Assembly: GCA_018780035.1 (NCBI GenBank) | Contig: JADMKE010000014.1 | Span: 137,271 to 173,657, forward strand | Length of the DNA: 36,387 nucleotides | Direction: 5' to 3' | Source: Candidatus Sericytochromatia bacterium | Lineage (GTDB): Bacteria > Cyanobacteriota > Sericytochromatia > UBA7694 | Shown: positions 4,142-35,800 of the stretch, piece after piece | How the letters are laid out: every line of letters starts with the position of its first letter | How positions within the stretch are numbered: the first letter of the stretch is position 1 | The notes under the pieces: model-generated | What the model saw: only the letters and a program-made list of their open reading frames with translations | Database searches by the model: none | Told to the model about the DNA's origin: nothing | Position numbers and translations under genes: made by a program

Positions 4142-4233
4142 CCAGATTGTCCTAGCTTTTCGATTCCACACTCAAATTAAAACATATATTCTTCCCAAGA
4201 TAAAAGCACAGTTCCGTCACACCCGCCCCCCTC

Positions 4234-12489: not shown

Positions 12490-13857
12490 CTATTTACGTG
12501 TGTAAGCTTTGAGGAAATTGCCCCAACCTTTGGTCTCAGCGAACAGGAGCACGCTGGGATTGTCATAAACTTGTTTGTAGCTCATGGTGGAGGTGGGGAA
12601 ATAAATCACAGCGCCGGTGGCGTTGGGATTCATGCGGTCAAAGCCATTGGCAATCACAGCTTTTTTATAAGCGTTCATGACATCAGCGGCACCGCGGCTG
12701 CGGGTGGCACCAGCGTAGAGTTGCAGGAAGTGACCGAAGTCAGCTGCATCGCGGTTATAGAACATTTGGGTTTTGCTGCGAGCGGCATCAATGGCAGCTT
12801 TGTTGGCAGGCAAACCAGCGGTCAGCTCAGCACCAAAGGCATTGATGGCGGCAGTCAGTTCGCCAGTAACGACATTCACATCGGTTGCAGCCAAGGTGAT
12901 GTCATTGCCGCGTTGTACGCCGGTGGCATAGGATTTGATATAGCTATCAACCATGTGTTTGCCGAGTTGAGCAGCATCCCAACCAGAGTTCTGGGCCAGA
13001 CCGCCAACATAAGAGCGGTATTCCCAACCGTCGCCGGGTTCGAGCTCTTCAGAAGCGACCAAGACTTTGGCCAAGCCTTTGACTTGATAAGCGGTTTCGA
13101 GGTAGCTCATCAGGCAGGTATCGAAGCCCATGATGTCCACGGGGCCACCGATATTGCGGGCGGCAGCAGCCAGAGCGGGATTCAGGTCAGCCATTTTCAT
13201 TTCGCCACCATTGTCATCGGAGCCGAAATTGCGGGAGCCATCAGCAAAGCGGCTCTGAATGCCATTCATGGCACCAATCTGAGTCGGAACAAACATTTCA
13301 AAAGTAGAGGCTTCACCACCGCGACGAACGGCACCACCACCGTGATTCCAGATGGAGATGGAGTTTTTCTGAGCGGGGAAGGTTTTGGTGACCCAATCTG
13401 TGAAAGCAGCGAAGACTTTGCCGTCGCCGGAGTCGATTTCACTGCCAGCTTTGGCAATCGGGTTGTCGATCGGTTTGGAAACGAGGGTGCTGTTTAAACC
13501 AGCGGGGTCAGCTTGCATACGGTAGACAGCAGAGTCACCCTGTTTGGCACCGTCGAAAAGCACAATCACTTCGATGTCGTTGGCTGCGGCGCCAGCGTCA
13601 TTCAGACCGGCTTCAATTTCGTTCAAGTCTTTCAGACCTGCGGTGTAGAGGTTGTTGTCTGCAGCCATGTGGATGGCAACCAGCCATTTTTTGCCATTGC
13701 GGGCGCGGCTGAGAGCGTTAACCTGGGTGCGATTATTTAATGCATTAAGCGCAGCGCCCTGGGGGCCTGTCAGTCCAACGGGACCGCAAGCAGCCATAGT
13801 ACCGACGGCAGAAGCCAGTGCGGCGAGAGCGGAAGCTTTTTTGAGAACCTGATTCAT
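12490..13857 (-). CDS. Clostripain-family (peptidase C11) cysteine protease lipoprotein.
   Basis: The lipoprotein signal is 'ALAALASAVGTMAAC'. C11 hallmarks are present: 'WLVAIHMAADNNL', the His motif 'SIWNHGGG' and the Cys motif 'MGFDTCLMSYLE'. ATG is at 13857. Confidence 0.85.
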   Translation of the reverse strand: MNQVLKKASALAALASAVGTMAACGPVGLTGPQGAALNALNNRTQVNALSRARNGKKWLVAIHMAADNNLYTAGLKDLNEIEAGLNDAGAAANDIEVIVLFDGAKQGDSAVYRMQADPAGLNSTLVSKPIDNPIAKAGSEIDSGDGKVFAAFTDWVTKTFPAQKNSISIWNHGGGAVRRGGEASTFEMFVPTQIGAMNGIQSRFADGSRNFGSDDNGGEMKMADLNPALAAAARNIGGPVDIMGFDTCLMSYLETAYQVKGLAKVLVASEELEPGDGWEYRSYVGGLAQNSGWDAAQLGKHMVDSYIKSYATGVQRGNDITLAATDVNVVTGELTAAINAFGAELTAGLPANKAAIDAARSKTQMFYNRDAADFGHFLQLYAGATRSRGAADVMNAYKKAVIANGFDRMNPNATGAVIYFPTSTMSYKQVYDNPSVLLFAETKGWGNFLKAYTRK

Positions 13858-15108: not shown

Positions 15109-15984
15109 TTGATGCAACCGACCTCTCTCTCTCGCATTATTCAGGATACCCACGCCCTGCCCTCTATTCCTGGCGTCGCCAGTCGCTTACTCGAACGCCT
15201 GCAAGATCCCGAAACCCACGCAGCTGAAATCAGCACCCTGATTGAAATGGATCCGGCTCTCAGCCTCAAAGTATTACAATTGGCCAATTCTGCCATGTTT
15301 GCCCCCGCCAGCCCCGTGCATTCCATTGAAAGAGCCATCATGCTCTTGGGGTTTAATACAGTTCGTTTTTTGATTACCGGGGTCGCTGTTTTACAGGTCG
15401 CCCAAAAGATGCCCGAAAATGAAATTATCAATCCCGAAAATTTCTGGCGTTCGGCCTTTCGGGGCGCGGTTGCAGCCAAATATTTCGCAGAGCAAAGCAA
15501 TTATCCCGAATCCAATGAGGCCTATTTGGCAGGTCTGATTCGCGAAATAGGCAAAATCGCCTTGATTCAATGTGCTTATGAGACCTATTTAAGCGTGGTA
15601 AAGGCCGCCCAAAACGCCAATGTAGCTGTGGTACACAAAGAAAGGGAGATCTTGGGTTTTACCCACGCCGATGTCGGCGCCTTGCTGGCCGTCAAATGGA
15701 ATCTCGATGAAGGCCTGGCAAGTGTGATTGCGGCTTACCCTTTTCCTGGCGATCACCCCGAACTGAACAATTTACATCTTGCCACTGTTTTGCACTTGGC
15801 CGACCGTTTTGCCGCCCTAGAGACCCCAACGGCAGCGCATTTTGAGCAGATTTTAGCCGAACTCGATCCGCTGGCAATCCAGTATTGGTCCCAAGAGCAA
15901 GGCCGCAATCTCAGCCCCGAAAGCCTTGAAATGGATTGGCAGGCCTTAAAATCCCAACTCGATCAGGGCAACCCATTCATCTAA
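15109..15984 (+). CDS. HDOD-domain signalling protein.
   Basis: The sequence 'LPSIPGVASRLLERLQDPETHAAEISTLIEMDPALSLKVLQLANSAMF...GLIREIGKIAL...FTHADVGALLAVKW' is a typical HDOD domain. The start is TTG 15109 or ATG 15112, with GAGGAG upstream. Confidence 0.85.
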   Translation: MMQPTSLSRIIQDTHALPSIPGVASRLLERLQDPETHAAEISTLIEMDPALSLKVLQLANSAMFAPASPVHSIERAIMLLGFNTVRFLITGVAVLQVAQKMPENEIINPENFWRSAFRGAVAAKYFAEQSNYPESNEAYLAGLIREIGKIALIQCAYETYLSVVKAAQNANVAVVHKEREILGFTHADVGALLAVKWNLDEGLASVIAAYPFPGDHPELNNLHLATVLHLADRFAALETPTAAHFEQILAELDPLAIQYWSQEQGRNLSPESLEMDWQALKSQLDQGNPFI

Positions 15985-21121: not shown

Positions 21122-23539
21122 ATGCCAGAAAGTACAGATCACGATTGGTTGGAAGCCCAAACAGCCTGGGAAGCCGGCCTGTTCGACAAAGCCCGGCTCA
21201 AGCTCGAAAAGAGACTCAATCGCCATCCCCAAGATACATCCACACTTGCCTTATTGGGTCAGGTTGCTCAGGCCCAGCACCACTGGAAAGAGGCCCGTCG
21301 CCACTTTGAACAGGCCCACGAACTGGCCCCCGCAAACCCAGAATATACCCACTTATTGGCCCAGTGGTTTGTCGCTCGCCAAGGTTTCCCAGAGGCCGAA
21401 GCCCTTTATGCCGCTTTTTTGACCGCTTACCCAGCCCATCCTTCCCTGCGGGTCGAATACGCCGCGCTATTGGGGGCCAGAGGAGCCCTCAACGAGGCAG
21501 AAACCCAACTCAAAACCTGTTTGGCCGACTTTCCCGATCAGCTCGATGCCTGGCTGCTCTACGGCAATCTGGCAGCGGCCATGGGCCAATTCAAGACCGC
21601 TGAAAACGCCTACCAAGAAATTATCTCCCGCCAGCCAAAATTGCCCGAGGTCTATCGCCGCAGGGGTCAACTCGCGCTGATGCAAGGCCTCCCAGAACAG
21701 GCCTTGCCCCAGTTTGAACAGGCCCTGGAACTGGATCGTGACGATGCCGAAAGCTGGAGCAATCTCGGCGCCGTCAAGCTGATGATGGCCCAAACCCCAG
21801 CGGAACGGGGTGAGGCGATCCGGGCCTGCATGCAGGGCCTGCTGCGCGACAACCGCAACCCGCAGATTCTCGCCAATATTGGCCTGGGCTTTTTCCAAAT
21901 GGAACTTTATCCCGAAACCCTCTTTTATCTTGATCAGGCGCGCAGCCTTGATCCGCAATTGCAGATCGGGGATTTTGAATTGGGGATGTCTCTGCTCAAA
22001 ATCGGCAAAGCCGGTCACGCTTTGGAATATTTGCAAAACTGCCAGACCGCCGCAGAAGAACCCCCCGAAAATCTGGCCCAGGTGGCCGCTTGGCTGGGGT
22101 ATATCCGGGCCCAACAGGGGGATCTGGTTCAGGCCCAAAAAGACTATTTGGCCCTGGAGACCTGCGATCCCCACCAAGGCGGAAAATGGCTAGCGGCATC
22201 GCTCTTGCCGCCGGTGGCGGCCTCAGAATCGGCCTGGCAAGACTATGCCTTGCATTACCGCCGGGCCCTGGCCAAATTGCAGCAGGCCCCAGCATTTAAA
22301 CTCAAACAGATGCCCGTGGACATGCCTGGCCTGTTTTGGGCCTACCAGAGCGACAATGTCAGACCCGAGCAAGAAATCCAAGCCCAGCTCTGGCAACGAG
22401 CCCTACAAGACAGGCTGTGCAGCACAAAACACAAGACACGTCCCCAAGCCCCCTGGCGGATTGGGCTGGTCTCACGCTATTTTCACAATCACTCGGTAAT
22501 GGGGGTTTTCGCCCGCCTGATTCAGGCCTTGAGCCAAGAACCCAGCTTTGAAGTCGAATTGTTTATGCTCGGCCCCAGTGGCGAAGATGCCACCACCGCC
22601 TTTTTGAGCCGCCTGTCGCTCAAGCGGCATTTCCTCGGTGGCCAAGACTTAGATCAGATCAACAAAGCGATTCTCAGCCGCGAGTTGGATGTCTTGCTCT
22701 ACCCGGAGTTGGGCATGGACCCGTTGACCTTTGCCCTGGCCTGTTCGCGCCTGGCCCCTTACCAAGCCGTCTTATCTGGGCACCCGGTCACAACAGGCCT
22801 CAACACCATCGACAGCTATCTTTCCAGCCGCTGGCTTGAACCGGCTGAAAATGCCCAGGCCGCTTATAGCGAAAAGTTAATCTGTCTGGACGAATTACTG
22901 CCGGATTTTCCCTTTCCCACTCTGCCCAGCCAAAACAAAAGCCGCTCTGAACTGGGCCTGAAGCAGAAACGCGTTTATCTCTGCCCGATGATGTTATTTA
23001 AGCTGCACCCGGCCATGGATGCCGTCTTTGCTGAAATTTTGGCCCGCGACCGCGAAGGGGAGATTGTCTTTTTTCAATACCCACCTTATTCGTTGCACGA
23101 CGGCCTGGAAAAAGCCCTGATCAAACGCTGGGCCCGCAGCATTCCCCAGGCCAAACGCCTGCGTTTTTTGCCCTGGGCCTCGCGCGAAGACCTGCTGCGC
23201 CTGATTCAACACGCCGATGTGGTGCTCGACAGTTTTCCCTTTGGCGGCGGCAATACCAGCTATTTGACCCTGGCAATGGGCACACCGCTCGTGACCCTGG
23301 CTGCACCTTATTTACGCGGGCGCAGCAGCACAGGCATGTATCTGCGCATGGGTCTGCCTGAACTGCCCGCCCAGAGCCCCACTGAATATGTCGAAAAGGC
23401 CCTGAAATGGGCCAACGAACCACAGGCCCGTGCAGAGGTCAAAGCCCTGATCGAAGCCCAACGCGGCGTGCTCTTTGACAACCCAGCCGGGTCGCAGGCT
23501 TTGATTAATTTTTTGAAGAACTCCCTGGCAAGTCTTTAA
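21122..23539 (+). CDS. TPR-repeat protein fused to an O-GlcNAc-transferase-type (GT41, SPINDLY-like) glycosyltransferase domain.
   Basis: The N-terminal 400 aa hold multiple TPR repeats. The C-terminal half contains 'RIGLVSRYFHNHSVMGVF...LDVLLYPELGMDPLTFALACSRLAPYQAVLSGHPVTTGL...KLHPAMDAVFAEIL', characteristic of the GT41 catalytic domain. It lies 9 bp after gloB. Confidence 0.85.
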   Translation: MPESTDHDWLEAQTAWEAGLFDKARLKLEKRLNRHPQDTSTLALLGQVAQAQHHWKEARRHFEQAHELAPANPEYTHLLAQWFVARQGFPEAEALYAAFLTAYPAHPSLRVEYAALLGARGALNEAETQLKTCLADFPDQLDAWLLYGNLAAAMGQFKTAENAYQEIISRQPKLPEVYRRRGQLALMQGLPEQALPQFEQALELDRDDAESWSNLGAVKLMMAQTPAERGEAIRACMQGLLRDNRNPQILANIGLGFFQMELYPETLFYLDQARSLDPQLQIGDFELGMSLLKIGKAGHALEYLQNCQTAAEEPPENLAQVAAWLGYIRAQQGDLVQAQKDYLALETCDPHQGGKWLAASLLPPVAASESAWQDYALHYRRALAKLQQAPAFKLKQMPVDMPGLFWAYQSDNVRPEQEIQAQLWQRALQDRLCSTKHKTRPQAPWRIGLVSRYFHNHSVMGVFARLIQALSQEPSFEVELFMLGPSGEDATTAFLSRLSLKRHFLGGQDLDQINKAILSRELDVLLYPELGMDPLTFALACSRLAPYQAVLSGHPVTTGLNTIDSYLSSRWLEPAENAQAAYSEKLICLDELLPDFPFPTLPSQNKSRSELGLKQKRVYLCPMMLFKLHPAMDAVFAEILARDREGEIVFFQYPPYSLHDGLEKALIKRWARSIPQAKRLRFLPWASREDLLRLIQHADVVLDSFPFGGGNTSYLTLAMGTPLVTLAAPYLRGRSSTGMYLRMGLPELPAQSPTEYVEKALKWANEPQARAEVKALIEAQRGVLFDNPAGSQALINFLKNSLASL

Positions 23540-24629
23540 AACTTAAAAGTTTCAAACTGAGCTTGGTGCCCTGCCCAACTTTGCTCTGAATCTCAACGCT
23601 GGAGCGCAACAAACGGGCAATTTCGTCGCAGATACGCAAATCCATGCCTTCCAGGAGATCGCTTTCTCCACGCAGCTCTTCCAGGGCTTCGGCCACAAAA
23701 CCAGGACCATTGTCTTCTTGGCTCAACACAGACTCACGGCCTTCTTGGTACAGGCGCAAGGAAAGGGTACTGGCTGGTGGCAAATGCTGTAAGGCAAAGT
23801 GCATCCAACCATGAGACAATTCCCGCAGCAATTGGGGTTCGGCCAATACTTCATGGTCTGGATTGCAGCGCAGGCGGAGTTCAATTTGCCGAGCAGAGCA
23901 GGGCTCCATATACTGGGCCAGGATTTCGTCCAAAATGTCCCTGACATTGACCTTTTGCAGTGCGGGAAAGGGCATGAAGCGGTAATGGGCCTGGCGCAGA
24001 AGCTGATGCAAATGTTTTTGTCCCCGCTTTGCGGCAAAGAGAGCCTCTCTGAGGTATTTTTCAGGCAGACTTGGAATATCTGGCCAGGATTTTTGCAGAT
24101 TTTCCAGCCGCAAATCCATTTGCCCCAGTCCTTCGTTGAGTTCGCAAGAGAGCACCTGAAACATCTCATCTTTGGCTTGGTTAAAGCGTTTGAGTTCGTT
24201 TTCCCGGCTGTGTAAAATCAGGCTATTGCGAACCCGTGCCAAAAATTCCAGTTTATCCACAGGTTTGCGCACAAAATCGACAGCGCCCAATCCCAAGGCC
24301 CGTGACAGGTCATAACTGCGGGTCATGATGCCTGTACAAATGATTACAGGCAAATCCGCAAGCAGGGCATTTTGTTTTAATTGTTGCAGCAGGGTTAAGC
24401 CGTTCATATGGGGCATTTCCCAATCGCTGATCAGCAGATCCAACGGCTCTTGACGGGCAATTTCCAGGGCCAGCAGACCATGATTGGCCCTTAAAATTTC
24501 GAAAGGCCAGCCACTGGCGCGCAAAAATCCCTGCAGGGTTTCCAATGCACTGAGTTCGTCATCGACCAATAAAATTCGGGCCGGGGAACGGGGCCCAAAA
24601 CAGGCTGGCAAAGAATAAGACTCCGTCAT
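23505..24629 (-). CDS. Response-regulator receiver domain fused to a histidine-kinase-like region (dimerisation plus ATPase domains) in which the phospho-acceptor His is replaced by Cys. It is a probable pseudokinase or atypical signalling protein.
   Basis: The receiver reads 'ILLVDDELSALETLQGFL...DLLISDWEMPHMNGLTLL'. The H-box-like region reads 'FQVLSCELNEGL' against the consensus 'SHELRTPL'. The ATPase G1 box 'DNGPGF' and the G2-like 'GQGTKLSL' are present, but the N-box Asn is not evident. ATG 24629 has GGGAG upstream; the track start is TTG 24641. Confidence 0.8.
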   Translation of the reverse strand: MTESYSLPACFGPRSPARILLVDDELSALETLQGFLRASGWPFEILRANHGLLALEIARQEPLDLLISDWEMPHMNGLTLLQQLKQNALLADLPVIICTGIMTRSYDLSRALGLGAVDFVRKPVDKLEFLARVRNSLILHSRENELKRFNQAKDEMFQVLSCELNEGLGQMDLRLENLQKSWPDIPSLPEKYLREALFAAKRGQKHLHQLLRQAHYRFMPFPALQKVNVRDILDEILAQYMEPCSARQIELRLRCNPDHEVLAEPQLLRELSHGWMHFALQHLPPASTLSLRLYQEGRESVLSQEDNGPGFVAEALEELRGESDLLEGMDLRICDEIARLLRSSVEIQSKVGQGTKLSLKLLSFKDLPGSSSKN

Positions 24630-24675
24630 TGACGCTCCCAAATCTATCCAACAGCGTTTAATCTATCCATTTTTA

Positions 24676-26946
24676 TTATAATCGGCTGTTGGGTCTTTCT
24701 GTCAGAGGATCTTCGCTTAAGCCTGCCAGCAAGCGGCTGTAACTTTCTTGGTCAAAGGCGTTGATGGCTTGATGCAGGCCTGAGAGCCAGGTTTGGGCTT
24801 GGGGCGACAGGGTTTGATTGCTGCTAGCCAAAACAGCCTCGATCCGACTAAATTGGTAGACCTGCAACCCCCTCAGTTCTGTCAGCAGAGGGGCCAGTTC
24901 TTTGCTGAGCCCTGCGCGATCGTTCTGTTCTTCTGATCGGCTGACACCAGCTCCAGCAGGCACACGCTCTGTGATTTGCTGCCGGGCCTGGGGCAATTCC
25001 AACTTGACCTCGGTTCCCTTTTCCGCTTGGCTGTTTAAGTAGATCTTGCCACCCAAAGCCTCGGTTGCCAGCTTGCAAAAGGCCAATCCCAACCCGGTCG
25101 AAGATAAAAACAGTTCAGATTCGTGGTGGCCCGTTTGAAATTTTTCAAACAGCCGCTGTTTTTGTTGCTCTGAAATCCCGTTGCCCTGATCCCGGATCGT
25201 GAGGGTGACTTCTGCCTGCGCAAATTGCCCTGCCAACTCCACGGTGGAGCCCGGTGGGGCGTATTTGATCGCATTGCTGAGCAAATTGACCAAGACCCGG
25301 CGCAGCAAGAGCACATCACAGTTGAGCAAAATCCCTTCCGGCAAGTCGGTTTTTAAGAAAATATTGCGGCGTTCGGCATAAAAGCGCAGTTCTTGCAGCG
25401 CTTCTTGCACCAAAGCCAGCAGTTCATACTCTTCCCATTTGAGCTGCAGTGCAGTATTGCGGGCCAGGCTCAGATCGAGCAGGTTTTGAATCAGCAACTG
25501 CATCTGCCGCCCCGCTTCACGAATCTGTTGCCAAGCACCGAGTTGACTGTTGTCTTGTGCCAAAATCACCCCCAGCGGGGTTTTGAGATCGTGAATGATC
25601 ATCTCGGTCAGAGTTTCACGGGCTTCGCTCAGGGCCTCGACACGGGCCTTGGCTTGATTCAGGTCTTCTGTGCGCGCCAGCACTTTGGCTTCGAGTTCCA
25701 AGTTGAGGCTTTGCAATTCCTGGGTCAGAGACTCACGCATCACAAAGGCCTGAGAAAATCGCCGGGCCAGCAAAATCGCCTGACAAAAGCTAAAGATCAC
25801 ATAGCCCCAAAGCACCAAATCTTGGCTGCGAATCAACTCCATATTGTGCAGGATATCGTGTACAGCCAGGATCAAATAAGCGGCAAAACCACCCCAAAAG
25901 AAATAGGCTCCTTCCCGTTTATGCCTCACCGCCTGATAAGTGACCCAAACGGCATAAAGCAATTGGGCCAAATGCAATCCCCAGAAAGGTAAAAGGCTTA
26001 AACTGTGTAGGGGTGAGGGCAAGAGCAAAGTTGCCAAAAGCAACCCCCAAACAGGCCAGGTCAAAAAACGAATGATCTTGGCTGTGGTTTCATCGGGAAA
26101 GAGGGCCTGCAGATACTTAAACATTAAAAAGGTCGCCCCGTAAAGCACCAAGCGGGTCAGGCGCAAACTCAGTTCAAAGCTATCCAACCCCAGCAAACTC
26201 TCAAAGAGATGGGTCATCATCAAATCATAATAGAGCGAGGCGCACAAAATAGTCAGACCAAACCAGAGCGCCAAGCGGTTTCGCGGCAATATGCCCCAAA
26301 GCAGCAGGTGGTAAAGCGCCAAAAAGAAGACAAAGCCCAAAGCCAGGGCAATACCCGTCTGTTCTTGGTTTTCTGCCAATGAAATCTCACTGGCCAGGCC
26401 CAGCCAAAGGGGTTCGATCAGACCCGAACGGTGAAAGGTCGAATTGGATACATCACAATGCAAATGGCCCTTGTCCTGACGCAAAACAAAGGGCAGAAAG
26501 CGATTGCGGCGAGAAGCCACCAGTTCTCCACGCCAATGCGTACCGCTGTGAGCCACCAATTGTCCCTCAAAATAACAGGCGTAGGCACTGCCTTGAAAAC
26601 GGGTGCGCAAACGCAGGACCTGACCCACATCCGCTGGGGCAAAATTCACTTGCAGGGCATAACGGGCCTGGCCCAATTGTGTGCGCCAAAGCGGCAATTT
26701 TTCCAGTTTTTCCCAGCGCCCAGGCACACGAATGGCTACCTGTTGGGTACTTTGCCCAAACCGAAAGAGCCATTCCCCATTGAGTTTAAGCGGGGCTTGT
26801 TGCCTCAGCGACCATGTGCGCAGATCCAATACCCCGGCTTGGGCTTGGGGGGGCAAAACCGGAACAGCCAAAGCCCAACCAAACAGAGGGCCAGATAGCC
26901 AAAAACAAATTAAATAAACAAATATCACCCAAAAGGGCTTTTGCAT
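24676..26946 (-). CDS. Sensor histidine kinase with a 7TMR-DISM periplasmic sensor domain and 7TM module, plus a roughly 120-aa C-terminal extension of unknown function.
   Basis: The N-terminus has a signal/transmembrane segment. 'LDLRTWSLRQQAPLKLNGEWLFRFGQ' is the 7TMR-DISMED2 signature. Seven hydrophobic helices follow. A coiled coil leads to the H-box 'IIHDLKTPL', then an N-box and G-boxes 'IRDQGNGIS' and 'GLGLAFCKLATEALGGKI'. ATG 26946 has GGGGAA 8 nt upstream. Confidence 0.9.
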   Translation of the reverse strand: MQKPFWVIFVYLICFWLSGPLFGWALAVPVLPPQAQAGVLDLRTWSLRQQAPLKLNGEWLFRFGQSTQQVAIRVPGRWEKLEKLPLWRTQLGQARYALQVNFAPADVGQVLRLRTRFQGSAYACYFEGQLVAHSGTHWRGELVASRRNRFLPFVLRQDKGHLHCDVSNSTFHRSGLIEPLWLGLASEISLAENQEQTGIALALGFVFFLALYHLLLWGILPRNRLALWFGLTILCASLYYDLMMTHLFESLLGLDSFELSLRLTRLVLYGATFLMFKYLQALFPDETTAKIIRFLTWPVWGLLLATLLLPSPLHSLSLLPFWGLHLAQLLYAVWVTYQAVRHKREGAYFFWGGFAAYLILAVHDILHNMELIRSQDLVLWGYVIFSFCQAILLARRFSQAFVMRESLTQELQSLNLELEAKVLARTEDLNQAKARVEALSEARETLTEMIIHDLKTPLGVILAQDNSQLGAWQQIREAGRQMQLLIQNLLDLSLARNTALQLKWEEYELLALVQEALQELRFYAERRNIFLKTDLPEGILLNCDVLLLRRVLVNLLSNAIKYAPPGSTVELAGQFAQAEVTLTIRDQGNGISEQQKQRLFEKFQTGHHESELFLSSTGLGLAFCKLATEALGGKIYLNSQAEKGTEVKLELPQARQQITERVPAGAGVSRSEEQNDRAGLSKELAPLLTELRGLQVYQFSRIEAVLASSNQTLSPQAQTWLSGLHQAINAFDQESYSRLLAGLSEDPLTERPNSRL

Positions 26947-27077
26947 CGTCATTTCCCCACTCACAGTCCCTGGTGCAGCAAGCGCTCTTGCAGGTGTCTA
27001 GAGCATTTCAGTTTAAACCACCCAGGGCGATTTTGAATACCCTGGGCGGGCTCTGGCATTGTTTCAGAGATAGCCCA

Positions 27078-30000
27078 TCAAGGAGAAATTCTGCGAACAC
27101 GGTGGTTAAGCCGGTCGGCCACATAGACCTGACCTGTACTATCTACGCTCACACCGGTCGGATTGTTCAGCTGAGCCAAACCTGCAATGCTGTTGTCTCC
27201 GGCCAGAGCAGCGGCCCCCGTTCCAGCAAGGGTATAAATAAAATTGGCAGTCATGGCTTGGCCATAATAATTCCCTGATGTGATCGGGATAAACCGAATC
27301 TTGTGATTGCCAGTATCGGCAATAAACACCCCTGTGGCATTGGCAAAGACCCCGCGTGGGCTGCTCAGACGGGCTGAGGTCGCGCTACCGCCATCCCCTG
27401 TTGCACCGGCATTGCCATCACCAGCGATGACATACAGGGTATCTGCGGCCATGACTTGGCCAAAATAGTTACCCGCGGTGTCGGGCCTGAAGAAGATGCG
27501 GTGGCTGCCTGCATCGGCAATGTACACATGCCCGCCGTTGGTGGCGTTGGCCACCCGATGGATACCACTCGGACTGTTCAAAGCGCTGCCACCAAAGCCA
27601 CCGCCTGCAACAAAATAGATATTGCTGCCAGCGACCGTTCTGCCAAAGCGGGTGGCGGGCCCGGTCAGGAGATTGGAGAAATAGGCCACGTTATTGCCCG
27701 TATCGGCAATCAAGGTGCCATTGCCCTGATCTGCAACCCCTTCGGGACTGGCCATATTGGCCGCGAAGCGGGCAGTACCATCGGTCGCAGCACCATTGGT
27801 GCCACTGCCATTGACAGTATAAATACTGCCGGCAGTCATGGCGATATTGTAAAAAGTGGCAGTGGTATTGCTGAGGGTGCGTACCCGCTGATTGGCGGTA
27901 TCTGCAAAGGTCAGCAAAATATTGCCAATCAGGGCAATCCCGTGGGGATCGTTGACCTGAGCGGAGGTGCCCGCACCATTATCACCGGCAAATGTGCCGG
28001 TGCCATTGCCGGCCAGGGTATAGATATTGCCTGCGGTCATGCCAGCCACCCCAAAAAAGTCACCATTGCTGGCAGGCACAAAGCGAATGCGGTGATTGCT
28101 GCTATCGGCAATGGCCACATGATTGGAGGCATTGATAGAGACGCCCCAGGGGGCATTTAATTGTGCGCTTGCAGCAGCGCCATTGTCACCACTGAAGCCC
28201 TGGGTCGAACCGGCAAAGGTGGTGATTCTGGGCATGACTGTAAAATTGCTTCCGGCACTGGTTTGGGTCCCCACCTGAACAGTGGTGGCATAAGGCGCGG
28301 CATTGGATGTCAGAGAAGGTACTGTAACAGTGAGAGCCGTGGCTGTCGCCCCTGTGACTGTGGCATTTGTGCCGCCAAAACTGACGGTATTGCTGCCCAG
28401 TGTGGTGTGAAAGCCTGAACCATTGATCGTGATACTGGCTCCCGCCACATCACTGCTGGTACCGGCAGAAGTGAAACCGGTAATCGCAGGTGTGACGGCA
28501 TAATTATTCGTGCCGGCATTGGTTTGCCCTGCCACCGTGACCGTGACATTCTGGCTGCCAAAGATTCCGGCAGGCACCGTCACATTGAGGCTGGTCACTG
28601 AAGCGGTATTGACCGTGGCTGTGGTTGTACCGAAACGCACGGTATTGTTGCCAGGGGTCGTGTCGAAGCCGGTGCCGGTGATGGTCAGGGCACTGCCAAT
28701 CGTGCCATTGCTGGCACTCAGGTTGGTAATTGTGGGCCCTGCGGCACTCACTGTGTAGTTATTGGTGCCTGCATTGGTCTGTGCGCCGACCTGAACCGTC
28801 ACATTCTGAACGCCGACATTGTTGGGCACCGTGACCGTCAATTGGGTTGTGGTGGCAGCCGTGACTGTGGCAGCAGTGCCACCAAAGCTCACGGTATTGC
28901 TGCCGAGTGTGGTATGAAAACCACTGCCGTTAATAGTCATGCTACTGCCAACATTGCCTGCGATGGGGGTGAGATTGGTAATCGCTGGCGTAACCGCATA
29001 ATTATTCGTGCCGACATTGGTTTGCCCTGCCACCGTGACCGTGACATTCTGGCTGCCAAAGATTCCGGCAGGCACCGTCACGTTAAGGCTGGTGGCTGAA
29101 GCGGTATTGACTGTGGCCGTGGTCGTGCCAAAACGCACGGTGTTGTTGCCAGGGGTGGCATCAAAGCCCGTGCCGGTGATTGTCAGGGTACTGCCAATCG
29201 CGCCATTGCTGGCACTCAGGTTGGTAATCGTGGGGGTCACATTAAAATTATCTGCGGCGGTATTGGCGCTGGTCTGGTTGCCGACCTGCACAGAAATATC
29301 CTGGGCCCCGGTGATGCCCACTGGCACCGTGACCGTGAGTTGGGTATTGCTGGCTGCTGTAACTGTGGCAATGGTGGTGCCAAAGCGCACGGTATTGCCT
29401 CCGGTTGTGGCGTGAAAATTTGTGCCGTTGAGGGTAACGCTGCTGCCAATCGGGCCGGCACTCGCACCTAAACTGGTAATACTGGGGGTCGCTGGGGTGG
29501 CTGTTACTGTCACAGCATGGGTTCCACCTTCTGTGCTCGTCACCGGATTGGTGGCCACAGCATAGGTATACGTGGTTCCGGGGGTACCGGCACTGGAAGC
29601 CAAAAGCCGCAAGCCAGAACCAGGAGTGGATTTGACAAAAGCAGTCACGCCATTGCCTGCTGCCGTAACCACGGGTGTGGCACTGTCGGTCAATTGCAAA
29701 CGGGCTTGGTCTGCCCCCACTAAGCCCGTCACCGTGGCATTGACAGTGCTGCCGTTGAGGCGGTAATTGGCTGGAGTCAAAGCCCCTGGATTCTGGCTCA
29801 AAAGATCATTGGCCAATTGGGTCAGGTTGATCAGGGTCGGATGGGTGGTATAGGTATAGTTGGGATAGGTGCCTGCCACACCGGTGATCTGATTGATCAG
29901 GGTATTTAAATCCGCCAGCACGATTGCTTTGGCACGGGTGAGATTGGTGGCCATCAGGCTTTTCATCACCTTGGCCGCAGGAGTGCTCAAAAAACTGACC

Positions 30001-30476
30001 TCCACATTGGCATTGTTGATTCCGGGATGGCTGATCACACTGGCCAGTTCGGCCTGGGGAATGAGCGCCACACCGTCATTGACACTGAGCTCCAGCAATA
30101 ACAATTGATCGGGGATCAGATTGTTAAAGGTCAGGCTCAGATTGCCGCCAACAGGGTAATTGACTTGGCCCTGGGCATCAGAGCCATTGGGCCGGGTAAC
30201 AAGATTAAAGCTGTCGGTGACTAAGGCTTTGACTTTGGTGGCAGAGGCAAAGTCCAGGGCCTGGGTTTTAAACGCTGGCAAAGCAGGCAAATCCAGGTGT
30301 AAGGTCAGTTGATTCCCGTGCCATTCCATCCGAGCAGGCCTGAGTAAAACAGGTGAAACTACGGGAGATTGCTGTAAAGGAGAAGCAGGATTTGGCATAG
30401 ATGTCAGCTCAGGTGAACTTTGGCAGGCCGCCAACAGAGAGAGAAGCACAAAGAGCGAAAGAGATGAATAGCGCAT
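27078..30476 (-). CDS. Giant surface lipoprotein (1132 aa) with a lipobox signal, at least 7 IPT/TIG domains and a C-terminal six-bladed NHL beta-propeller.
   Basis: The signal is 'MRYSSLSLFVLLSLLAAC'. TIG units recur as 'TITNLSASNG.IGS.LTITGTGFD.TPGNNTVRFG...LNVTVPAGIFGSQNVTV'. NHL blades read 'AIADSSNHRIRFV', 'FADTANQRVRTL', 'VYIADAGSHRIFF', 'VFIADTGNHKIRFI' and 'VYVADRLNHRVRRI'. The ATG shares one nucleotide with the upstream gene's stop (TAATG). Confidence 0.9.
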   Translation of the reverse strand: MRYSSLSLFVLLSLLAACQSSPELTSMPNPASPLQQSPVVSPVLLRPARMEWHGNQLTLHLDLPALPAFKTQALDFASATKVKALVTDSFNLVTRPNGSDAQGQVNYPVGGNLSLTFNNLIPDQLLLLELSVNDGVALIPQAELASVISHPGINNANVEVSFLSTPAAKVMKSLMATNLTRAKAIVLADLNTLINQITGVAGTYPNYTYTTHPTLINLTQLANDLLSQNPGALTPANYRLNGSTVNATVTGLVGADQARLQLTDSATPVVTAAGNGVTAFVKSTPGSGLRLLASSAGTPGTTYTYAVATNPVTSTEGGTHAVTVTATPATPSITSLGASAGPIGSSVTLNGTNFHATTGGNTVRFGTTIATVTAASNTQLTVTVPVGITGAQDISVQVGNQTSANTAADNFNVTPTITNLSASNGAIGSTLTITGTGFDATPGNNTVRFGTTTATVNTASATSLNVTVPAGIFGSQNVTVTVAGQTNVGTNNYAVTPAITNLTPIAGNVGSSMTINGSGFHTTLGSNTVSFGGTAATVTAATTTQLTVTVPNNVGVQNVTVQVGAQTNAGTNNYTVSAAGPTITNLSASNGTIGSALTITGTGFDTTPGNNTVRFGTTTATVNTASVTSLNVTVPAGIFGSQNVTVTVAGQTNAGTNNYAVTPAITGFTSAGTSSDVAGASITINGSGFHTTLGSNTVSFGGTNATVTGATATALTVTVPSLTSNAAPYATTVQVGTQTSAGSNFTVMPRITTFAGSTQGFSGDNGAAASAQLNAPWGVSINASNHVAIADSSNHRIRFVPASNGDFFGVAGMTAGNIYTLAGNGTGTFAGDNGAGTSAQVNDPHGIALIGNILLTFADTANQRVRTLSNTTATFYNIAMTAGSIYTVNGSGTNGAATDGTARFAANMASPEGVADQGNGTLIADTGNNVAYFSNLLTGPATRFGRTVAGSNIYFVAGGGFGGSALNSPSGIHRVANATNGGHVYIADAGSHRIFFRPDTAGNYFGQVMAADTLYVIAGDGNAGATGDGGSATSARLSSPRGVFANATGVFIADTGNHKIRFIPITSGNYYGQAMTANFIYTLAGTGAAALAGDNSIAGLAQLNNPTGVSVDSTGQVYVADRLNHRVRRISP
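28244..29240. repeat. Two near-identical tandem copies of a 498-bp unit (166 aa, two TIG domains) inside the 1132-aa gene.
   Basis: The same sequence appears at about 28499-28616 and about 28997-29114, with only about 6 mismatches over the roughly 118 nt compared by eye. Reverse-strand pseudo-ORFs 28510-28758 and 29008-29415 translate almost identically. Confidence 0.8.
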
Positions 30477-32809
30477 TAGTTAAAGCCTCCATTGGCGTTG
30501 AGGGTGATTGAAGGCAAAATCGCCGCCACAGCGTCACTGCTGAGCACATCCACGATCACGGTGATGTTGATATCCCCCGGCAAATTGAGAGCGGTGGGCA
30601 CAGGCACGATCAACTGGTTGCCATTTACAGCAGCAGCCGGGACTTCAATCGTCCCAAAGCGCACGCGGTTATTGCCCGCTAAAAGGGTGTCAAAACCCGT
30701 TCCTGTCAGGGTCAGGGAGCTTCCTCTGACGAGACGAGCCTTGCCAGAGACAATGCCATGAGGTGTGGCCAGAGCCGTAATCTGGGGTTTCACTTTAAAG
30801 GACAAAGCATTGCTGTTGGCACCATTGACCTTGACAGAGACATTCTGGGCCCCAAAGATGCCGGCGGGTACCGTCACGGTGAGACTGTTGGCTGTCGCGG
30901 CGGTCACTGTGGCCGAGACATTGCCAAAATTCACCAGATTTTCAGCTGCAACTGCACTGAAATTGGAACCAGTCAACGTGATCGTGCTGCCAATCGGAGC
31001 TATAGTAGAGGCAAGGGTCGAAAGGGTGGGTTGATTGAGGGCCGAAGCCCCGCCGCCTCCGCTCCCCCCGCCGCTGCTTCCCCCACCGGAAGACTGACGC
31101 CAAGTAGACGTCGTGGCTTTGCCTGTCACAGTATCATTGCCGCGCTTGACATCCACACGGAATTCATAGCGGCTATCAGGACTGAGGCCACTTGCAAGAT
31201 ATTTGAGTTTTTCCCCGGCTTGGCCATTGATTTTGGCAAGCAGGCGATTGCTTTCAAAAATTTCATAAGTGGCTGCGGCAGCAATCCCCGTAAATTCAAG
31301 TTGAATTTGGGTATATTCATTGTTTGGGAATGGATAAGCCTTGATCTGCAGACCAGTAGCCGAAGCGCTGGGGCTCGGAGAAACCGAAGGCGTGATCTGG
31401 GGAGAGGGAGTCGGAGAAGCGGTCGGCAATGCTGTCGGTCTGGCACTAGGAGATGCTGAGGGCTGAAGGCTGGGCGCGGGTTGGGGAGTGGGAACGGTTT
31501 CCGGTAACTGGGCCTGCAAAAGTGTCAATTCACAAGGGCCCAGCGGGGGAAATGGATTGGAAAGGATGACGGTTCCTTGTGAATTGTTCAGGTTCACAAT
31601 CTCTTTTCCGGTGTTATTGAGCTGTTTATTCTGAATATTTTCACGGACCGAAGAGATGGCAATGGCCGTTTCTGCGTTTGATATTTTTGTAATTTTTGAA
31701 TCAAAAATATTTATATTTTTATTTAAATCCAACAAGATAGACTGACTATCTCCCAAAATAATTTGATTAAGCGTCTGATTGATTTTGGTAATTTCATTGC
31801 TGGTGAGACTCACCATATCCATCACACTTCCGAGAGAGGTGTCCTGGTCATTACATTGTGGCAGCGAGTTGCTCAGATTGATGATTGAGCCCAAATTTTC
31901 AGCGACTGGCTTGAGAGGGCTGGGCTTTGGCGAAGAAAATAGCACAGAGGTGGTATTTGGGGAGGGGACTTGCTGAATCTGAAAACCCTCAGAGGGGGCA
32001 GGTGCTAAAGCCGCAATTAAGTTGGCTTGTTTGAGCTGTCGCTGAATTTCCTGGCCCATGAGTCCATTGAGATAGCGAATCTGAATCAAAGATTCCAAGC
32101 GCGCCACCAGATTGGGCATTGAGCTTAGAAAGGTATTTTGAATATTCTCTAAGCTTTCTTTTTCCAATCCCACGCGACCATCTTGCTGGGAGCCGCGTAT
32201 AATATCTGCCAAGACTGTTGAGCGGGGCGAAACTTCCACAGTCAATGAGACAGGCTTATTTGGCACATCTACGAGGGCACGGGCAATTAATTGACTTTGT
32301 TGATTGAGGGCCAAGACCTCATATCTGAACCCCCCTGGTAGGGCATTGATCTGAAAATGGCCCGTGGCATCTGTTTGCGTGCTGGCCAATTCTTGACCAT
32401 CGGGTAAATAGATTTTGACAGTTTGATAAGCCAGTCCCTCCAAAACAGCTTTATTGCCTTGAGGCATCAATAAACGCCCTTTCAGAGCCAAGGGCGATGC
32501 TTGCTTGAGCTGAGCGAGAACGGCTTGTTTCAGCTGGGCTTGTGCTCGCGCTTGCAATGCTGGTTCGACAGTTACCACTGAGGGGAGTTCTATTTCTTCA
32601 GCTGTCTGGAAATAGCTGTTTAAGGCCTGTCTTAAGCGTTCCCTTTCACTGTTTTTTTCACTCTGGCTTAAAGGAGGGAGAACCGCAGGTGTGCTTAAAA
32701 GCAAATTGCTGCCCAAAGGCCCAGTCTCTTGGCAGCCCAGTAAAAGGCTGAAACAGAGACAGGTAAAGGTCAGTGATTTTTTAAATCGAAAATGAGATGG
32801 ACGTATCAT
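30476..32809 (-). CDS. Surface lipoprotein (about 777 aa). Domains in order: CarboxypepD_reg-like beta-sandwich, low-complexity N/I/K-rich region, Pro/Ser/Thr/Ala linker, Fn3-like domain, Gly/Ser linker and two C-terminal IPT/TIG domains.
   Basis: ATG 32809 (MIRPSHFRFKKSLTFTCLCFSLLLGC, lipobox) has GAGGAG 10 nt upstream; the track start is TTG 32827. CarboxypepD_reg-like motif is 'KIYLPDGQELASTQTDATGHFQINALPGGFRYEVLA'. The Fn3-like segment is 'YEIFESNRLLAKINGQAGEKLKYLASGLSPDSRYEFRVDV'. The TIG motif is 'TIAPIGSTITLTGSNFSAVAAENLVNFGNVSATVTAATANSLTVTVPAGIFGAQNVSV'. It is a paralogue of the N-terminal region of the 1157-aa protein. Confidence 0.85.
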   Translation of the reverse strand: MIRPSHFRFKKSLTFTCLCFSLLLGCQETGPLGSNLLLSTPAVLPPLSQSEKNSERERLRQALNSYFQTAEEIELPSVVTVEPALQARAQAQLKQAVLAQLKQASPLALKGRLLMPQGNKAVLEGLAYQTVKIYLPDGQELASTQTDATGHFQINALPGGFRYEVLALNQQSQLIARALVDVPNKPVSLTVEVSPRSTVLADIIRGSQQDGRVGLEKESLENIQNTFLSSMPNLVARLESLIQIRYLNGLMGQEIQRQLKQANLIAALAPAPSEGFQIQQVPSPNTTSVLFSSPKPSPLKPVAENLGSIINLSNSLPQCNDQDTSLGSVMDMVSLTSNEITKINQTLNQIILGDSQSILLDLNKNINIFDSKITKISNAETAIAISSVRENIQNKQLNNTGKEIVNLNNSQGTVILSNPFPPLGPCELTLLQAQLPETVPTPQPAPSLQPSASPSARPTALPTASPTPSPQITPSVSPSPSASATGLQIKAYPFPNNEYTQIQLEFTGIAAAATYEIFESNRLLAKINGQAGEKLKYLASGLSPDSRYEFRVDVKRGNDTVTGKATTSTWRQSSGGGSSGGGSGGGGASALNQPTLSTLASTIAPIGSTITLTGSNFSAVAAENLVNFGNVSATVTAATANSLTVTVPAGIFGAQNVSVKVNGANSNALSFKVKPQITALATPHGIVSGKARLVRGSSLTLTGTGFDTLLAGNNRVRFGTIEVPAAAVNGNQLIVPVPTALNLPGDINITVIVDVLSSDAVAAILPSITLNANGGFN

Positions 32810-32832
32810 ATAGCTGGGGCTCCTCAAAATAT

Positions 32833-35800
32833 TTACCGCAATGTGACAGTGCGAGGCTTAGAAATTGCACCGTCTTTGGTTTTTACCCATAAATAGAGCT
32901 TGGTCGGTCTTTTGGGCAATTTTTCACTGACAGAATCTTTGATGAGTTTGGCAGACATTTCAACCAAACCGTTATATTTGTATAAAGACAGGGATTTCGC
33001 AACCGAGCTGAGCTCAAGGTTTATAACCAATTTCTCTCCCTTGGGCCCATTTTTACCTGGTTCATAGGGAGAAATAAAGATTTGATTGTCTTTAATACTC
33101 TCTGAAACATGGTACGTCTTTAAAGTGAATAAAGTATCAAAAGAGATCTGTTTATTGTCGATCACCTTATCCAGAATGCTGGCAATCTCAACAGAGGTGT
33201 TGATCACTGTCCCTGAATATTCAAGTTGAACAGGGTGAGTGCCATACAACCCCATTGGTACCTTCACATCTATTTCCGAAGCAGATATGACACTTGGGGT
33301 TACCTTTTCAGCAGAGCCTACTTTAACAGAGGTATTACCAAGCGCCTGCCCCTTGATTCTGACTCTGTTGTCCCCGTATTCATTTTCTTGAGAAGTAAAG
33401 ATCGGGCTGTCGGTATTCAAGTTTAATTCAAACGTGAAGGGATTGGGCAGTTCGAATTTGGCTGGGTCTTTTTCTGGATTGGTTTTATTGGCCACGACAA
33501 ATTTGGTTGAATATTTGGTTGGGTTAATATAATCCTGATACGGACAGATAATTTTTTTCGCTTGTGCATCTTCTTGGCAAGCCCGATAAAAACTGACGCC
33601 ATTTTGATTGGCAATTTGAGCATAAAAGGACACATAGGGCGAATCAAAAGGGGGCAAATTAGCGTAATTGCCAATTTCGATATGGCTTGGTTTGGGCTCA
33701 ATATTTGAGATGGTCGGAACCAGAAAATCAAGTTTTACCCCATTGGAAACCAAATTCCCAAATTCAACTTTGACTTCTTGATTACCAGCCAACTTAGGCG
33801 CTCCTGCCTCTATGAGGGTTTCTTGCGGAGTTAAGGTCACTTTGGTCACATCAACATCTTGCCCGCCAATCTTGAGCTTGACTTGATCCGAGTTCAGGGC
33901 AGAAGTCGAAATCTTTAAGCGTTCTCCCTGTCTCACCTGGGTGATGTTTTGGCCGGCTGCATTTTGGATTTTATTGAGCGTGATTTCTTTGGTTGTTGCT
34001 CCCAGGGTGATCGGTTTGGCCTCTGAGATGATATTGTGATTGGTGACAGTCACCAATGTCTTTCCCTCTATGCCCTGAGGAACAATGACCGTCAAAGCCA
34101 CTTCGCGCGCACCCACTTGATTCGTACATCTGGCGCAATAAGGGCTGGGGATATTTACAAAGTTGAATTTAGAAGCAATTTCTTTAACAGACTCAACAAC
34201 AGCTATTTTATCGCCAAATTTGACAATATTCTGATCTTTTCTAGGATCAAAAACTCCTTGTATTTCTATTTTTTGAAATTCAGCTGCATTTTCAGGTAAA
34301 ATACCTGAAATTTTGGGGGTAATGAACAAAGGTACTTTATGAACATAGGTATTGGCGTATCCCAGATCAGACAAGAATAACTCGAGCGTTTGCTCACCCA
34401 ATAGCTGTTTGGGAAAGTTATCGATGGTCAGCAATGTGCGCTCTTGGGAGATCGATCTGCGAATAACATTGACCTTCACTATCTCTTTTTTATCGGTCAC
34501 CAAGTGGTTTACGACAAAGCTCTTATCTGAAAGATTGATTGCCAATTCCAATGTAGTGCCATTTTGAACCTGTTTGGAAAGAATCTCGGTGGTGGGTTCA
34601 ACAAAAAGAAAGCGATGTTTGGTCTTTAAATTATCCAGATAGAGCTTATAAACCCCGATATATTCTTTGGGCAGTGTTAATTTTAACTCACGGTCTGAAA
34701 CAAACTCTGGGATAAGCTCTTTTTGGAATGCTTGGGTTTGCAAATGATTCGTGAGAATAATTTTGTGATTTTTACCAAAGAGGCCATTGAGGGTGATTGT
34801 CCCACCTCTTTTGGTGTAAGTGGAATTTGTCTCCCCCATAATACCTGCCAGGGGCGTAAATTGGACGGCATTGGACGATTGCTGATTGACCATCAGCTTG
34901 ATATCGAGTGGATTGACAGAGCTGAGCATGGGAACTTCGACTTGCAGAGAAATAATCTGTTTGCCTTTGTCATCCAACTCAAAAGACATTCCGATATTTT
35001 TGGCCAAGACGTCTCCAAACATCACTTTGTTTTCAGCAAGGTTCTTAGAAAAATCCGTTGTTTTGAGGGTGACCGTATCCCCCACAGCAGCGGTGGTTTT
35101 ATCCAGGGTAATATTTGCCAGGGGAGGCAGGGGAGTCGACATCACAATGGGGAGAGGTGGAGTGCTTGTACTGCAGTTTCTGTTTCCCACCCGACCAATA
35201 ATCCCTGTTAAATCTGATTTTAATTCCGTTGTAACTGCTTCACGCAGATCCATGGCAGTGTAAAGGGTTGAAATTTGGGTGTTTTTGTTCAGGGACGTTT
35301 GGATGGTCAACAAAGGAGAAATCAACAGATGGGGAGAGTTGATATTGTTATTCAGGCTTTCAATCGATTGAATCATTTCGGGCCCCACACCAGACAGTCC
35401 ATTTAATTGGGTTAGCAATTTAATTTGCTTTGGGGACCCCCCGTTTATCAGACCTATTTGTTGAACTTTAAAGCCCGTTTGCATTTGCCCAGAGCGCTGA
35501 GAACAGGCCTGAGAACGCTTGAATACAGATTGGGTTTGAAAATCGTTCAGTTTTGTTTGCACACCCGCTTGTATTTCGTCTTGCACCTCGCTGACCAGAT
35601 TGAGCAATGACAGTCCGGACACAAGTCGGAAGAAATGCTCTGGATTTTGTGTCAGATATTTCTCAATTTGTGCCACAGAAATCTGTTCCAGGCCTGAACG
35701 CCCATCGCGCGAAGCCAGCCAAACAGCCTCAGCAACGGCTGTCGTTTCCAAAGTGAGATTTTGTTCAATACTATCAGAGGGCGGGGTGGCAGGCAGATCG

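Follow-up and report, generated by a model that had tools for sequence, protein, structure and literature searches.

A gene on the minus strand of a 36,387-nucleotide stretch of DNA from a Candidatus Sericytochromatia bacterium, an uncultured cyanobacterial relative (contig JADMKE010000014.1; the whole stretch is called the window below), encodes a receiver (REC) domain fused to a degenerate histidine kinase core. The protein descends from a receiver-controlled histidine kinase (Rec-HK) of the LvrB/PhcR class, and its gene, like that of this ancestor, is the second of a conserved cassette, behind that for a 7TMR-DISM sensor kinase. In the Sericytochromatia/Blackallbacteria clade to which it belongs, the phospho-acceptor histidine, both asparagines of the N-box and the G2 box have been lost together with part of the ATP lid, while the fold has been kept. 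We consider it reasonably probable that this protein is a receiver-gated histidine pseudokinase, in which Asp69 of the receiver is phosphorylated by the neighboring kinase and the output is exerted through binding or scaffolding.

Domain organization and predicted fold

The features of the gene are given below. Residues are numbered according to the 374-residue form, because all orthologues begin at the equivalent of the ATG codon at 24629 (MTESY).

23505..24629, minus strand: gene for the receiver-fused putative pseudokinase, 374 amino acids from the ATG at 24629, stop codon at 23505-23507
24231..24575, minus strand: receiver domain, residues 19-133 (Pfam PF00072)
24087..24254, minus strand: continuous helix, residues 126-181, made up of receiver helix alpha5, the signaling helix and helix 1 of a region resembling the dimerization and histidine phosphotransfer (DHp) domain, with the former H-box (AlphaFold2)
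24144..24146, minus strand: TGC codon of Cys162, the residue that takes the place of the phospho-acceptor histidine
23979..24071, minus strand: DHp-like helix 2, residues 187-217 (AlphaFold2), with 71% of its positions invariant among orthologues
23541..23957, minus strand: domain of the Bergerat fold resembling a catalytic and ATP-binding (CA) domain, residues 225-363, catalytically degenerate (partial Pfam HATPase_c match, AlphaFold2, custom profile)
23784..23831, minus strand: former N-box helix, LLRELSHGWMHFALQH, in which Gly274 and Phe278 (23796-23798) replace two conserved asparagines
23697..23714, minus strand: G1 box DNGPGF, intact (custom profile) and unchanged at all six positions among orthologues
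23637..23696, minus strand: ATP lid shortened by about 10 residues, with the degenerate G2 box LEGMDL (23637-23654) at its end

An in-frame TTG at 24641 extends the open reading frame by four residues (23505..24641, 378 amino acids), and a GGGAG sequence lies about 7 nucleotides 5′ of the ATG at 24629. The same amino acid sequence is on record as NCBI MBT9545790.1, which comes from a metagenome-assembled genome of Candidatus Sericytochromatia.

The receiver is a full member of its Pfam family, scoring 77.6 bits against a cut-off of 30.2 (E = 1e-21). Its set of phosphorylation residues is complete, comprising Asp23/Asp24, the acceptor Asp69 (24423-24425), Thr99, Phe119 and Lys122, and all of these are invariant in seven orthologues. 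The remainder of the protein is far less typical by the same measure. Specifically, the HATPase_c profile (PF02518) yields a marginal 29.5 bits against a cut-off of 26.4 and covers profile positions 17-107 only, leaving the N-box part unmatched, and HisKA (PF00512) gives no Pfam match in the window protein even at E ≤ 1. A HisKA match below threshold is present in a distant relative (P0128).

An AlphaFold2 model built with a 40-sequence alignment has a mean pLDDT of 89.7 and a pTM of 0.71. It consists of an alpha/beta receiver (residues 17-121), a helix (126-181) that bears residue 162, a return helix (187-217) and an alpha/beta sandwich (225-363). When the model is compared with the Protein Data Bank (PDB) by Foldseek, the top full-length match is LvrB of Leptospira (8vc9, E = 2e-21), followed by DivL (4q20), HK853 and WalK, with RetS (6dk7) at ranks 49-50. 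A PDB sequence search with the C-terminal part of the protein returns just weak, generic CA-domain matches (PhoR, ZraS).

Loss of the catalytic motifs

To place each catalytic motif, we aligned the window protein to a profile hidden Markov model (HMM) made from 103 histidine-bearing relatives recovered by exhaustive search, none of them from the clade of the target. The segment FQVLSCELNEGLGQ aligns to 'fsiisHDLrnplss', which puts Cys162 on the acceptor histidine. Similarly, 'LSHGWMHFALQ' aligns to 'ilrNLlsNAik', such that Gly274 and Phe278 fall on the two N-box asparagine positions. The G1 box is intact ('EDNGPGF' aligned to 'eDnGvGi'), the ATP lid carries a 10-residue deletion, and the G2 box is degenerate ('LEGMDL' aligned to 'GtGLGL'). 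MAFFT alignments give a register identical to that of the profile.

Among the 103 relatives the histidine is present in 100, the two N-box asparagines in 96 and 102, and the G2 glycines in 102-103. Because the lost positions are nearly universal in these relatives, their combined loss is a real and unusual state for the family. Given that the asparagine that would serve as Mg-ATP ligand is a phenylalanine, that G2 is gone and that the lid is truncated, we infer that the protein neither binds ATP nor autophosphorylates; that it lacks the capacity for autophosphorylation is very likely from its motifs.

These results agree with much of a preliminary description of the gene, which was made from the letters of the DNA and had noted a receiver fused to a kinase-like module, a cysteine at the acceptor position, an intact DNGPGF, the lack of an evident N-box asparagine and a place downstream of a 7TMR-DISM kinase. 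Pfam and the custom HMM support the fusion, both alignment methods support the cysteine, the custom HMM alignment supports the state of the G1 box and of the N-box, and the kinase is found immediately upstream with all of its canonical motifs. The suggestion in that description that the protein probably does not autophosphorylate on histidine would follow naturally from the missing acceptor and N-box asparagine.

The architecture of a receiver, signaling helix, DHp region and CA domain that characterizes the Rec-HK class is present, as judged by the AlphaFold2 model and by the top match to LvrB. However, the class is also defined by an acceptor histidine in the H-box of DHp helix 1, which is here Cys162 (arginine in four of seven orthologues), and by a CA domain that binds ATP through N, G1 and G2 boxes and a complete lid, of which only G1 is kept. 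Since these two defining catalytic features fail, the window protein should not be filed as a receiver-controlled kinase. It does have the sequence-level marks of a histidine pseudokinase, namely a retained histidine kinase fold and a conserved loss of catalytic residues, as seven of seven orthologues have neither the histidine nor the N-box asparagines. The NCBI label of MBT9545790.1 is 'hybrid sensor histidine kinase/response regulator', and a 95%-identical sibling is labeled 'DNA-binding response OmpR family regulator' by JGI. On the basis of its motifs, the protein very probably fits neither public label.

Cysteine and arginine at the former histidine position

The seven distinct orthologues, counting the window protein, are 78-99% identical and come from at least nine independent Candidatus Sericytochromatia/Blackallbacteria assemblies. 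All carry the degenerate motifs, and Phe278 is invariant in the clade. The closest genome match (97%) is a Candidatus Blackallbacteria metagenome-assembled genome. Cysteine occupies the former histidine position in three of the seven (the window, L007/P0274 and P0272). The other four have arginine, including three proteins with 93-95% identity (P0271, P0273 and P0001) and one with 78% (P0002). The codons at this site are TGC for cysteine in the sub-clade of the window, CGC for arginine in the 93-95% orthologues and CGG for arginine in P0002, and the more distant homologues P0121 and P0122 have the histidine codons CAT and CAC.

In a neighbor-joining tree with 200 bootstraps, the window protein and L007 pair in 197 of 200 replicates and are nested within the arginine-bearing clade in 200 of 200, and the sister of the clade is the histidine-bearing P0121 (159 of 200). 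The simplest history suggested by these data is a change from histidine to arginine in the ancestor of the clade, followed by a change from arginine to cysteine through one C-to-T transition in the sub-clade of the window. The cysteine is a recent substitution at a relaxed site, because the outgroup orthologue has arginine. Near-identical proteins that differ by arginine or cysteine indicate that the position is no longer constrained, and therefore speak against cysteine-based chemistry. Thus, the replacement of histidine by cysteine is incidental, and not the defining feature of the protein.

A role for the cysteine as a conserved functional residue is excluded by the four arginine-bearing orthologues and by its derivation through a single C-to-T change. 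Accordingly, the non-canonical chemistry suggested in the preliminary description is not supported; in addition to the arginine in close orthologues, the CA-like domain lacks the Mg-ATP ligand asparagine, the G2 box and a portion of the lid, and no phosphodonor for the cysteine is evident. The same description had reasoned that orthologues all carrying a canonical histidine would suggest a strain-specific mutation or a sequencing error. Histidine is indeed present in the distant cassette homologues P0121, P0122 and P0128, but it is never found in close orthologues, and the substitution is therefore not a sequencing error. The recurrence of the same degenerate motifs in independent assemblies likewise rules out a sequencing error or strain artefact.

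Purifying selection with relaxed catalytic motifs

We estimated the ratio of nonsynonymous to synonymous divergence (dN/dS) by the Nei-Gojobori method, whose values are approximate here, and invariance as the fraction of positions that are identical among the seven orthologues.

Receiver domain: dN/dS 0.07-0.09, invariant fraction 0.92
DHp-like part: dN/dS 0.12-0.19
CA-like part: dN/dS 0.18-0.23
Signaling helix: invariant fraction 0.84
DHp helix 1 after the former histidine: invariant fraction 0.84
G1 box: invariant fraction 1.00
H-box residues up to the site: invariant fraction 0.33
N-box helix: invariant fraction 0.50
ATP lid: invariant fraction 0.50

For the whole protein dN/dS is about 0.15, which reflects purifying selection. 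The open reading frame is intact in seven of seven distinct variants, with a synonymous divergence (dS) to the P0002 lineage of about 1. The receiver is the most conserved part, and conservation is lowest in the H-box, the N-box helix and the ATP lid, three elements that are the most conserved ones of a working kinase. The pattern seen in these sequences is the signature expected of a pseudoenzyme in which the fold, the input and the surfaces for interaction are preserved.

A conserved cassette with a 7TMR-DISM sensor kinase

The partner of the target gene lies directly upstream of it.

24676..26964, minus strand: 7TMR-DISM sensor histidine kinase (Pfam 7TMR-DISM_7TM, HisKA and HATPase_c)

The kinase gene ends 46 nucleotides upstream of the start codon of the target. 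Its motifs are canonical, including the H-box with His458 (25591-25593), the N-box, G1 and G2, and these are invariant across six cassette kinases. Every locus of the clade (L001-L006 and the window) has a 7TMR-DISM kinase gene immediately upstream of the pseudokinase gene, even where the other flanks differ. Moreover, a 7TMR-DISM kinase of 734-751 residues is encoded immediately upstream of, or overlapping with, the genes for the distant relatives P0121, P0122 and P0174 (loci L048, L049-L051 and L052). Because the arrangement is kept both in distant loci and where the other neighbors of the clade differ, the pairing of this kinase with a Rec-HK is old and specific.

At its C-terminus (24715-24909, minus strand; approximately residues 686-750) the partner kinase carries a helical extension of about 65 residues after the CA domain. 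All six cassette kinases share this extension, at identities as low as 30%, with Leu690, Ser706, Leu712, Ala733 and Phe737 invariant. Pfam finds nothing meaningful in it (best E = 0.041), and it contains no conserved histidine. The Rec-(pseudo)kinase partner may dock on this extension. We also considered that it might be a histidine phosphotransfer (HPt) domain, which would make the receiver of the target a relay intermediate. This possibility is ruled out by the Pfam result and by the fact that the sole histidine in the window copy is arginine, lysine or methionine in the other cassette kinases.

On its other side, the 3′ end of the target gene overlaps by 35 base pairs (23505-23539) a convergent gene for a protein with TPR and GT41 glycosyltransferase domains (21122..23539, plus strand). 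This neighbor is also present in L001-L004.

Distant relatives form a graded series

With the C-terminal 239 residues of the window protein as query, HMMER recovers only four proteins at E ≤ 1e-10 in an exhaustive search of 1.84 billion representatives. A genome scan for further orthologues adds only L007 and L008, and a metagenome scan yields nothing closer than 34% identity, its two best matches (L055 and L056) being REC-LuxR-type proteins when translated. Nearest to the clade from outside are P0121 (identity of 35% to the C-terminal query and of 39% over the full length), P0122 (30% and 34-35%, respectively) and P0174 (34% over the full length). P0128 is a further member of the series.

All motifs are present in P0122 and P0128. 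The sister of the clade, P0121 (L048:2478-3575), keeps the histidine and the N-box asparagine but already shares the shortened lid of the clade, and from its sequence it may be an intermediate toward a pseudokinase. P0174 (L052:5001-6053), again encoded behind a 7TMR-DISM kinase, has asparagine in place of the histidine, arginine in place of an N-box asparagine and threonine in place of a G1 glycine. By its motifs it is apparently a second, independent degenerate Rec-kinase in the cassette family, although its state is less certain as it is a single sequence. A convergent gene for an OmpR-type regulator adjoins P0174 at L052:6050-6820.

Together, these proteins provide a clean example of the conversion of a kinase to a pseudokinase inside a conserved cassette. 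The graded series that runs within this one cassette from P0122 and P0128 through P0121 to the clade of the window and to P0174 could be used to study the change from relay to binding.

A model for receiver-gated binding, and its alternatives

The mechanism that we favor begins with the 7TMR-DISM kinase, which would autophosphorylate on His458. The phosphoryl group would then pass from His458 to Asp69 of the receiver, a step that we infer from two-component biology and from the work on LvrB. As in LvrB, phosphorylation of the receiver would re-pack both the long signaling helix and the DHp-like bundle of the dimer, but the conformational change would alter a binding surface rather than release the CA domain for autophosphorylation. 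The output would be a protein-protein interaction with a response regulator, with another kinase or with the upstream kinase itself, comparable to what is described for DivL and PsmA.

If so, then the catalytic relay step of the cassette may have been replaced by a phosphorylation-gated binding step, and this conversion may have occurred at least twice independently, in the clade of the window and in the P0174 lineage. This broader proposal is tentative. Equally tentative is the notion that such a protein would be a response regulator with a dead kinase as its effector, which regulates a kinase or regulator, or its own sensor kinase, by contact.

Several observations count against receiver-gated binding as the function of the protein. 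The loss of ATP binding and of autokinase activity is read from motifs, and both G1 (DNGPGF) and G3 (GQGT) are strictly conserved, such that the pocket may still bind some nucleotide or serve another role. No response regulator with an output domain adjoins the cassette within the window. A pure phosphate sink would likewise keep the receiver and a dimerizing helix under selection. Furthermore, dS is near 1 between the most distant orthologues, which makes the Nei-Gojobori ratios approximate, and the clade is small, with seven sequences that all come from metagenome assemblies.

The preliminary description had proposed that the protein acts as a phosphate sink or as a scaffold, and this pair of roles still leads. 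That the protein is a sink and nothing more is, in our view, unlikely. The receiver would in that case drain the 7TMR-DISM kinase in competition with a true regulator encoded elsewhere, and the dead module would be a dimerization stalk. This proposal accounts for the intact receiver and its standing as the most conserved part, and for the lack of an evident output domain or partner nearby in the window; at L052 the OmpR-type regulator that adjoins the cassette might be the actual output there. However, a stalk does not need a CA-like domain of about 140 residues that is kept at a dN/dS of about 0.2 and has a confident predicted fold, nor does it explain why DHp helix 1 after the former histidine is 84% invariant. 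In real kinases, this part of the helix is the surface on which the regulator docks, as in complexes of the HK853-RR468 type. The DHp-like bundle might instead dock a regulator and then dephosphorylate or sequester it under the control of the receiver, without need of a histidine. The acidic residue that follows the former histidine is indeed kept (C/R-E-L/W-N-E), the next helix is invariant, and the symmetric state of LvrB with an unphosphorylated receiver was proposed by its authors to be phosphatase-competent (PMC13269768). Nevertheless, the residue four positions after the histidine is glutamate in the window protein, compared with threonine, asparagine or serine in 76 of 103 relatives, and PsmA was judged phosphatase-dead for lack of the D/ExxT/N motif (PMC12963549). 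We regard this explanation as improbable.

Two further explanations we find very hard to credit. If the protein still worked as a kinase or in phosphotransfer by non-canonical chemistry, with a phosphocysteine at Cys162 or else His206 or His215 as acceptor, this would explain the intact and invariant G1 and G3 boxes and the exact placement of Cys162 at the acceptor position. Yet arginine stands there in four of seven orthologues, including those that are 93-95% identical, conservation within the protein is lowest around the site, the N-box asparagine is a phenylalanine, G2 is degenerate, the lid is truncated, and neither His206 nor His215 is conserved in P0121, the nearest histidine-bearing relative. 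The simultaneous loss of several catalytic motifs in a small clade might also be taken for the decay of a functionless gene into a pseudogene. This view is at odds with a reading frame that is intact in seven variants from at least nine assemblies at a synonymous divergence of about 1, with a dN/dS of about 0.15 and with the retained cassette arrangement.

Other features of the window

Directly upstream of the sensor kinase and on the same strand (27078-36306, minus), a tandem array of three very large genes encodes proteins of 1132, 783 and 1157 amino acids with IPT/TIG domains; the first of them also has NHL repeats and near-identical internal repeats of a TIG unit. The orthologous locus with 95% identity lacks these three genes at this position. 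A NarL/LuxR-type response regulator (3485-4171, minus strand) is divergent from a 1071-residue open reading frame (4328-7543, plus strand) for which Pfam gives no match at E ≤ 1e-5, and no link of this pair to the cassette was established. The window also encodes an HDOD-domain signaling protein (15109-15984, plus strand), a clostripain-family (C11) peptidase (12490-13857, minus strand), MutL, RecO, an HtrA-like protease, a formiminotransferase and glyoxalase II.

Comparison with known systems

Receiver-controlled histidine kinases, which include LvrB and PhcR of Ralstonia, were formerly called 'hybrid response regulators'. Histidine pseudokinases are likewise an already recognized class, and action by binding is documented for two of its members that are compared below, DivL and PsmA. 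In the literature that we searched, neither a receiver-controlled pseudokinase nor this cassette is described.

LvrB shares with the window protein an N-terminal receiver, a long signaling helix, a DHp region and a CA domain, as well as a similar length (379 residues versus 374). Both genes directly follow that of an upstream sensor kinase, which for LvrB is LvrA, the kinase that phosphorylates its receiver (PMC13269768). Upon this phosphorylation the signaling helices of LvrB form a coiled coil and the CA domain is freed, whereupon His161 is autophosphorylated and the phosphoryl group is passed to LvrC (PMC13269768). The kinship of the window protein with the LvrB/PhcR class is also evident from its nearest sequence relatives (P0121, P0122 and P0128), which are ordinary histidine-bearing Rec-HKs. 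In contrast to LvrB, to which it is about 18% identical in sequence, the window protein has no acceptor histidine and no N-box asparagine, its G2 box is degenerate and its lid is shortened. Judging from these motifs, autophosphorylation triggered by the receiver and transfer to LvrC would not be possible for it.

DivL of Caulobacter (4q20) also has a histidine kinase fold without the acceptor histidine, and it belongs to the second-best class of matches, with a TM score of 0.73 on the DHp-CA part. DivL is described as signaling by binding, with a kinase core that senses a phosphorylated regulator (PMC4211667). DivL differs in having tyrosine at the histidine position, N-terminal PAS domains and no receiver. 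It is an alphaproteobacterial cell-cycle protein, and there is no sign of common descent with the window protein beyond the histidine kinase superfamily.

PsmA of Streptomyces is a protein resembling hybrid kinases that has no autokinase activity and works through protein interaction (PMC12963549). Along with RocA of group A Streptococcus, it resembles the window protein as a degenerate histidine kinase-like protein without the H-box histidine. The receiver of PsmA is C-terminal and its aspartate is dispensable, whereas that of the window protein is N-terminal, canonical, the best conserved part and paired with a dedicated upstream kinase. RocA, for its part, is described as a pseudokinase. 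It is an accessory protein linked to CovR/S (PMC7028121).

The pseudomonad proteins RetS and LadS have the same 7TMR-DISM sensor module as the upstream kinase of the window, and a RetS structure (6dk7) matches the DHp-CA part of the window protein. RetS acts through DHp-DHp contact with GacS, and by analogy this contact is one possible model for the output of the pseudokinase. RetS and LadS each combine the 7TMR-DISM module with an atypical kinase core in one protein, whereas the window divides these parts between a canonical sensor kinase and a separate degenerate core that is fused to a receiver.

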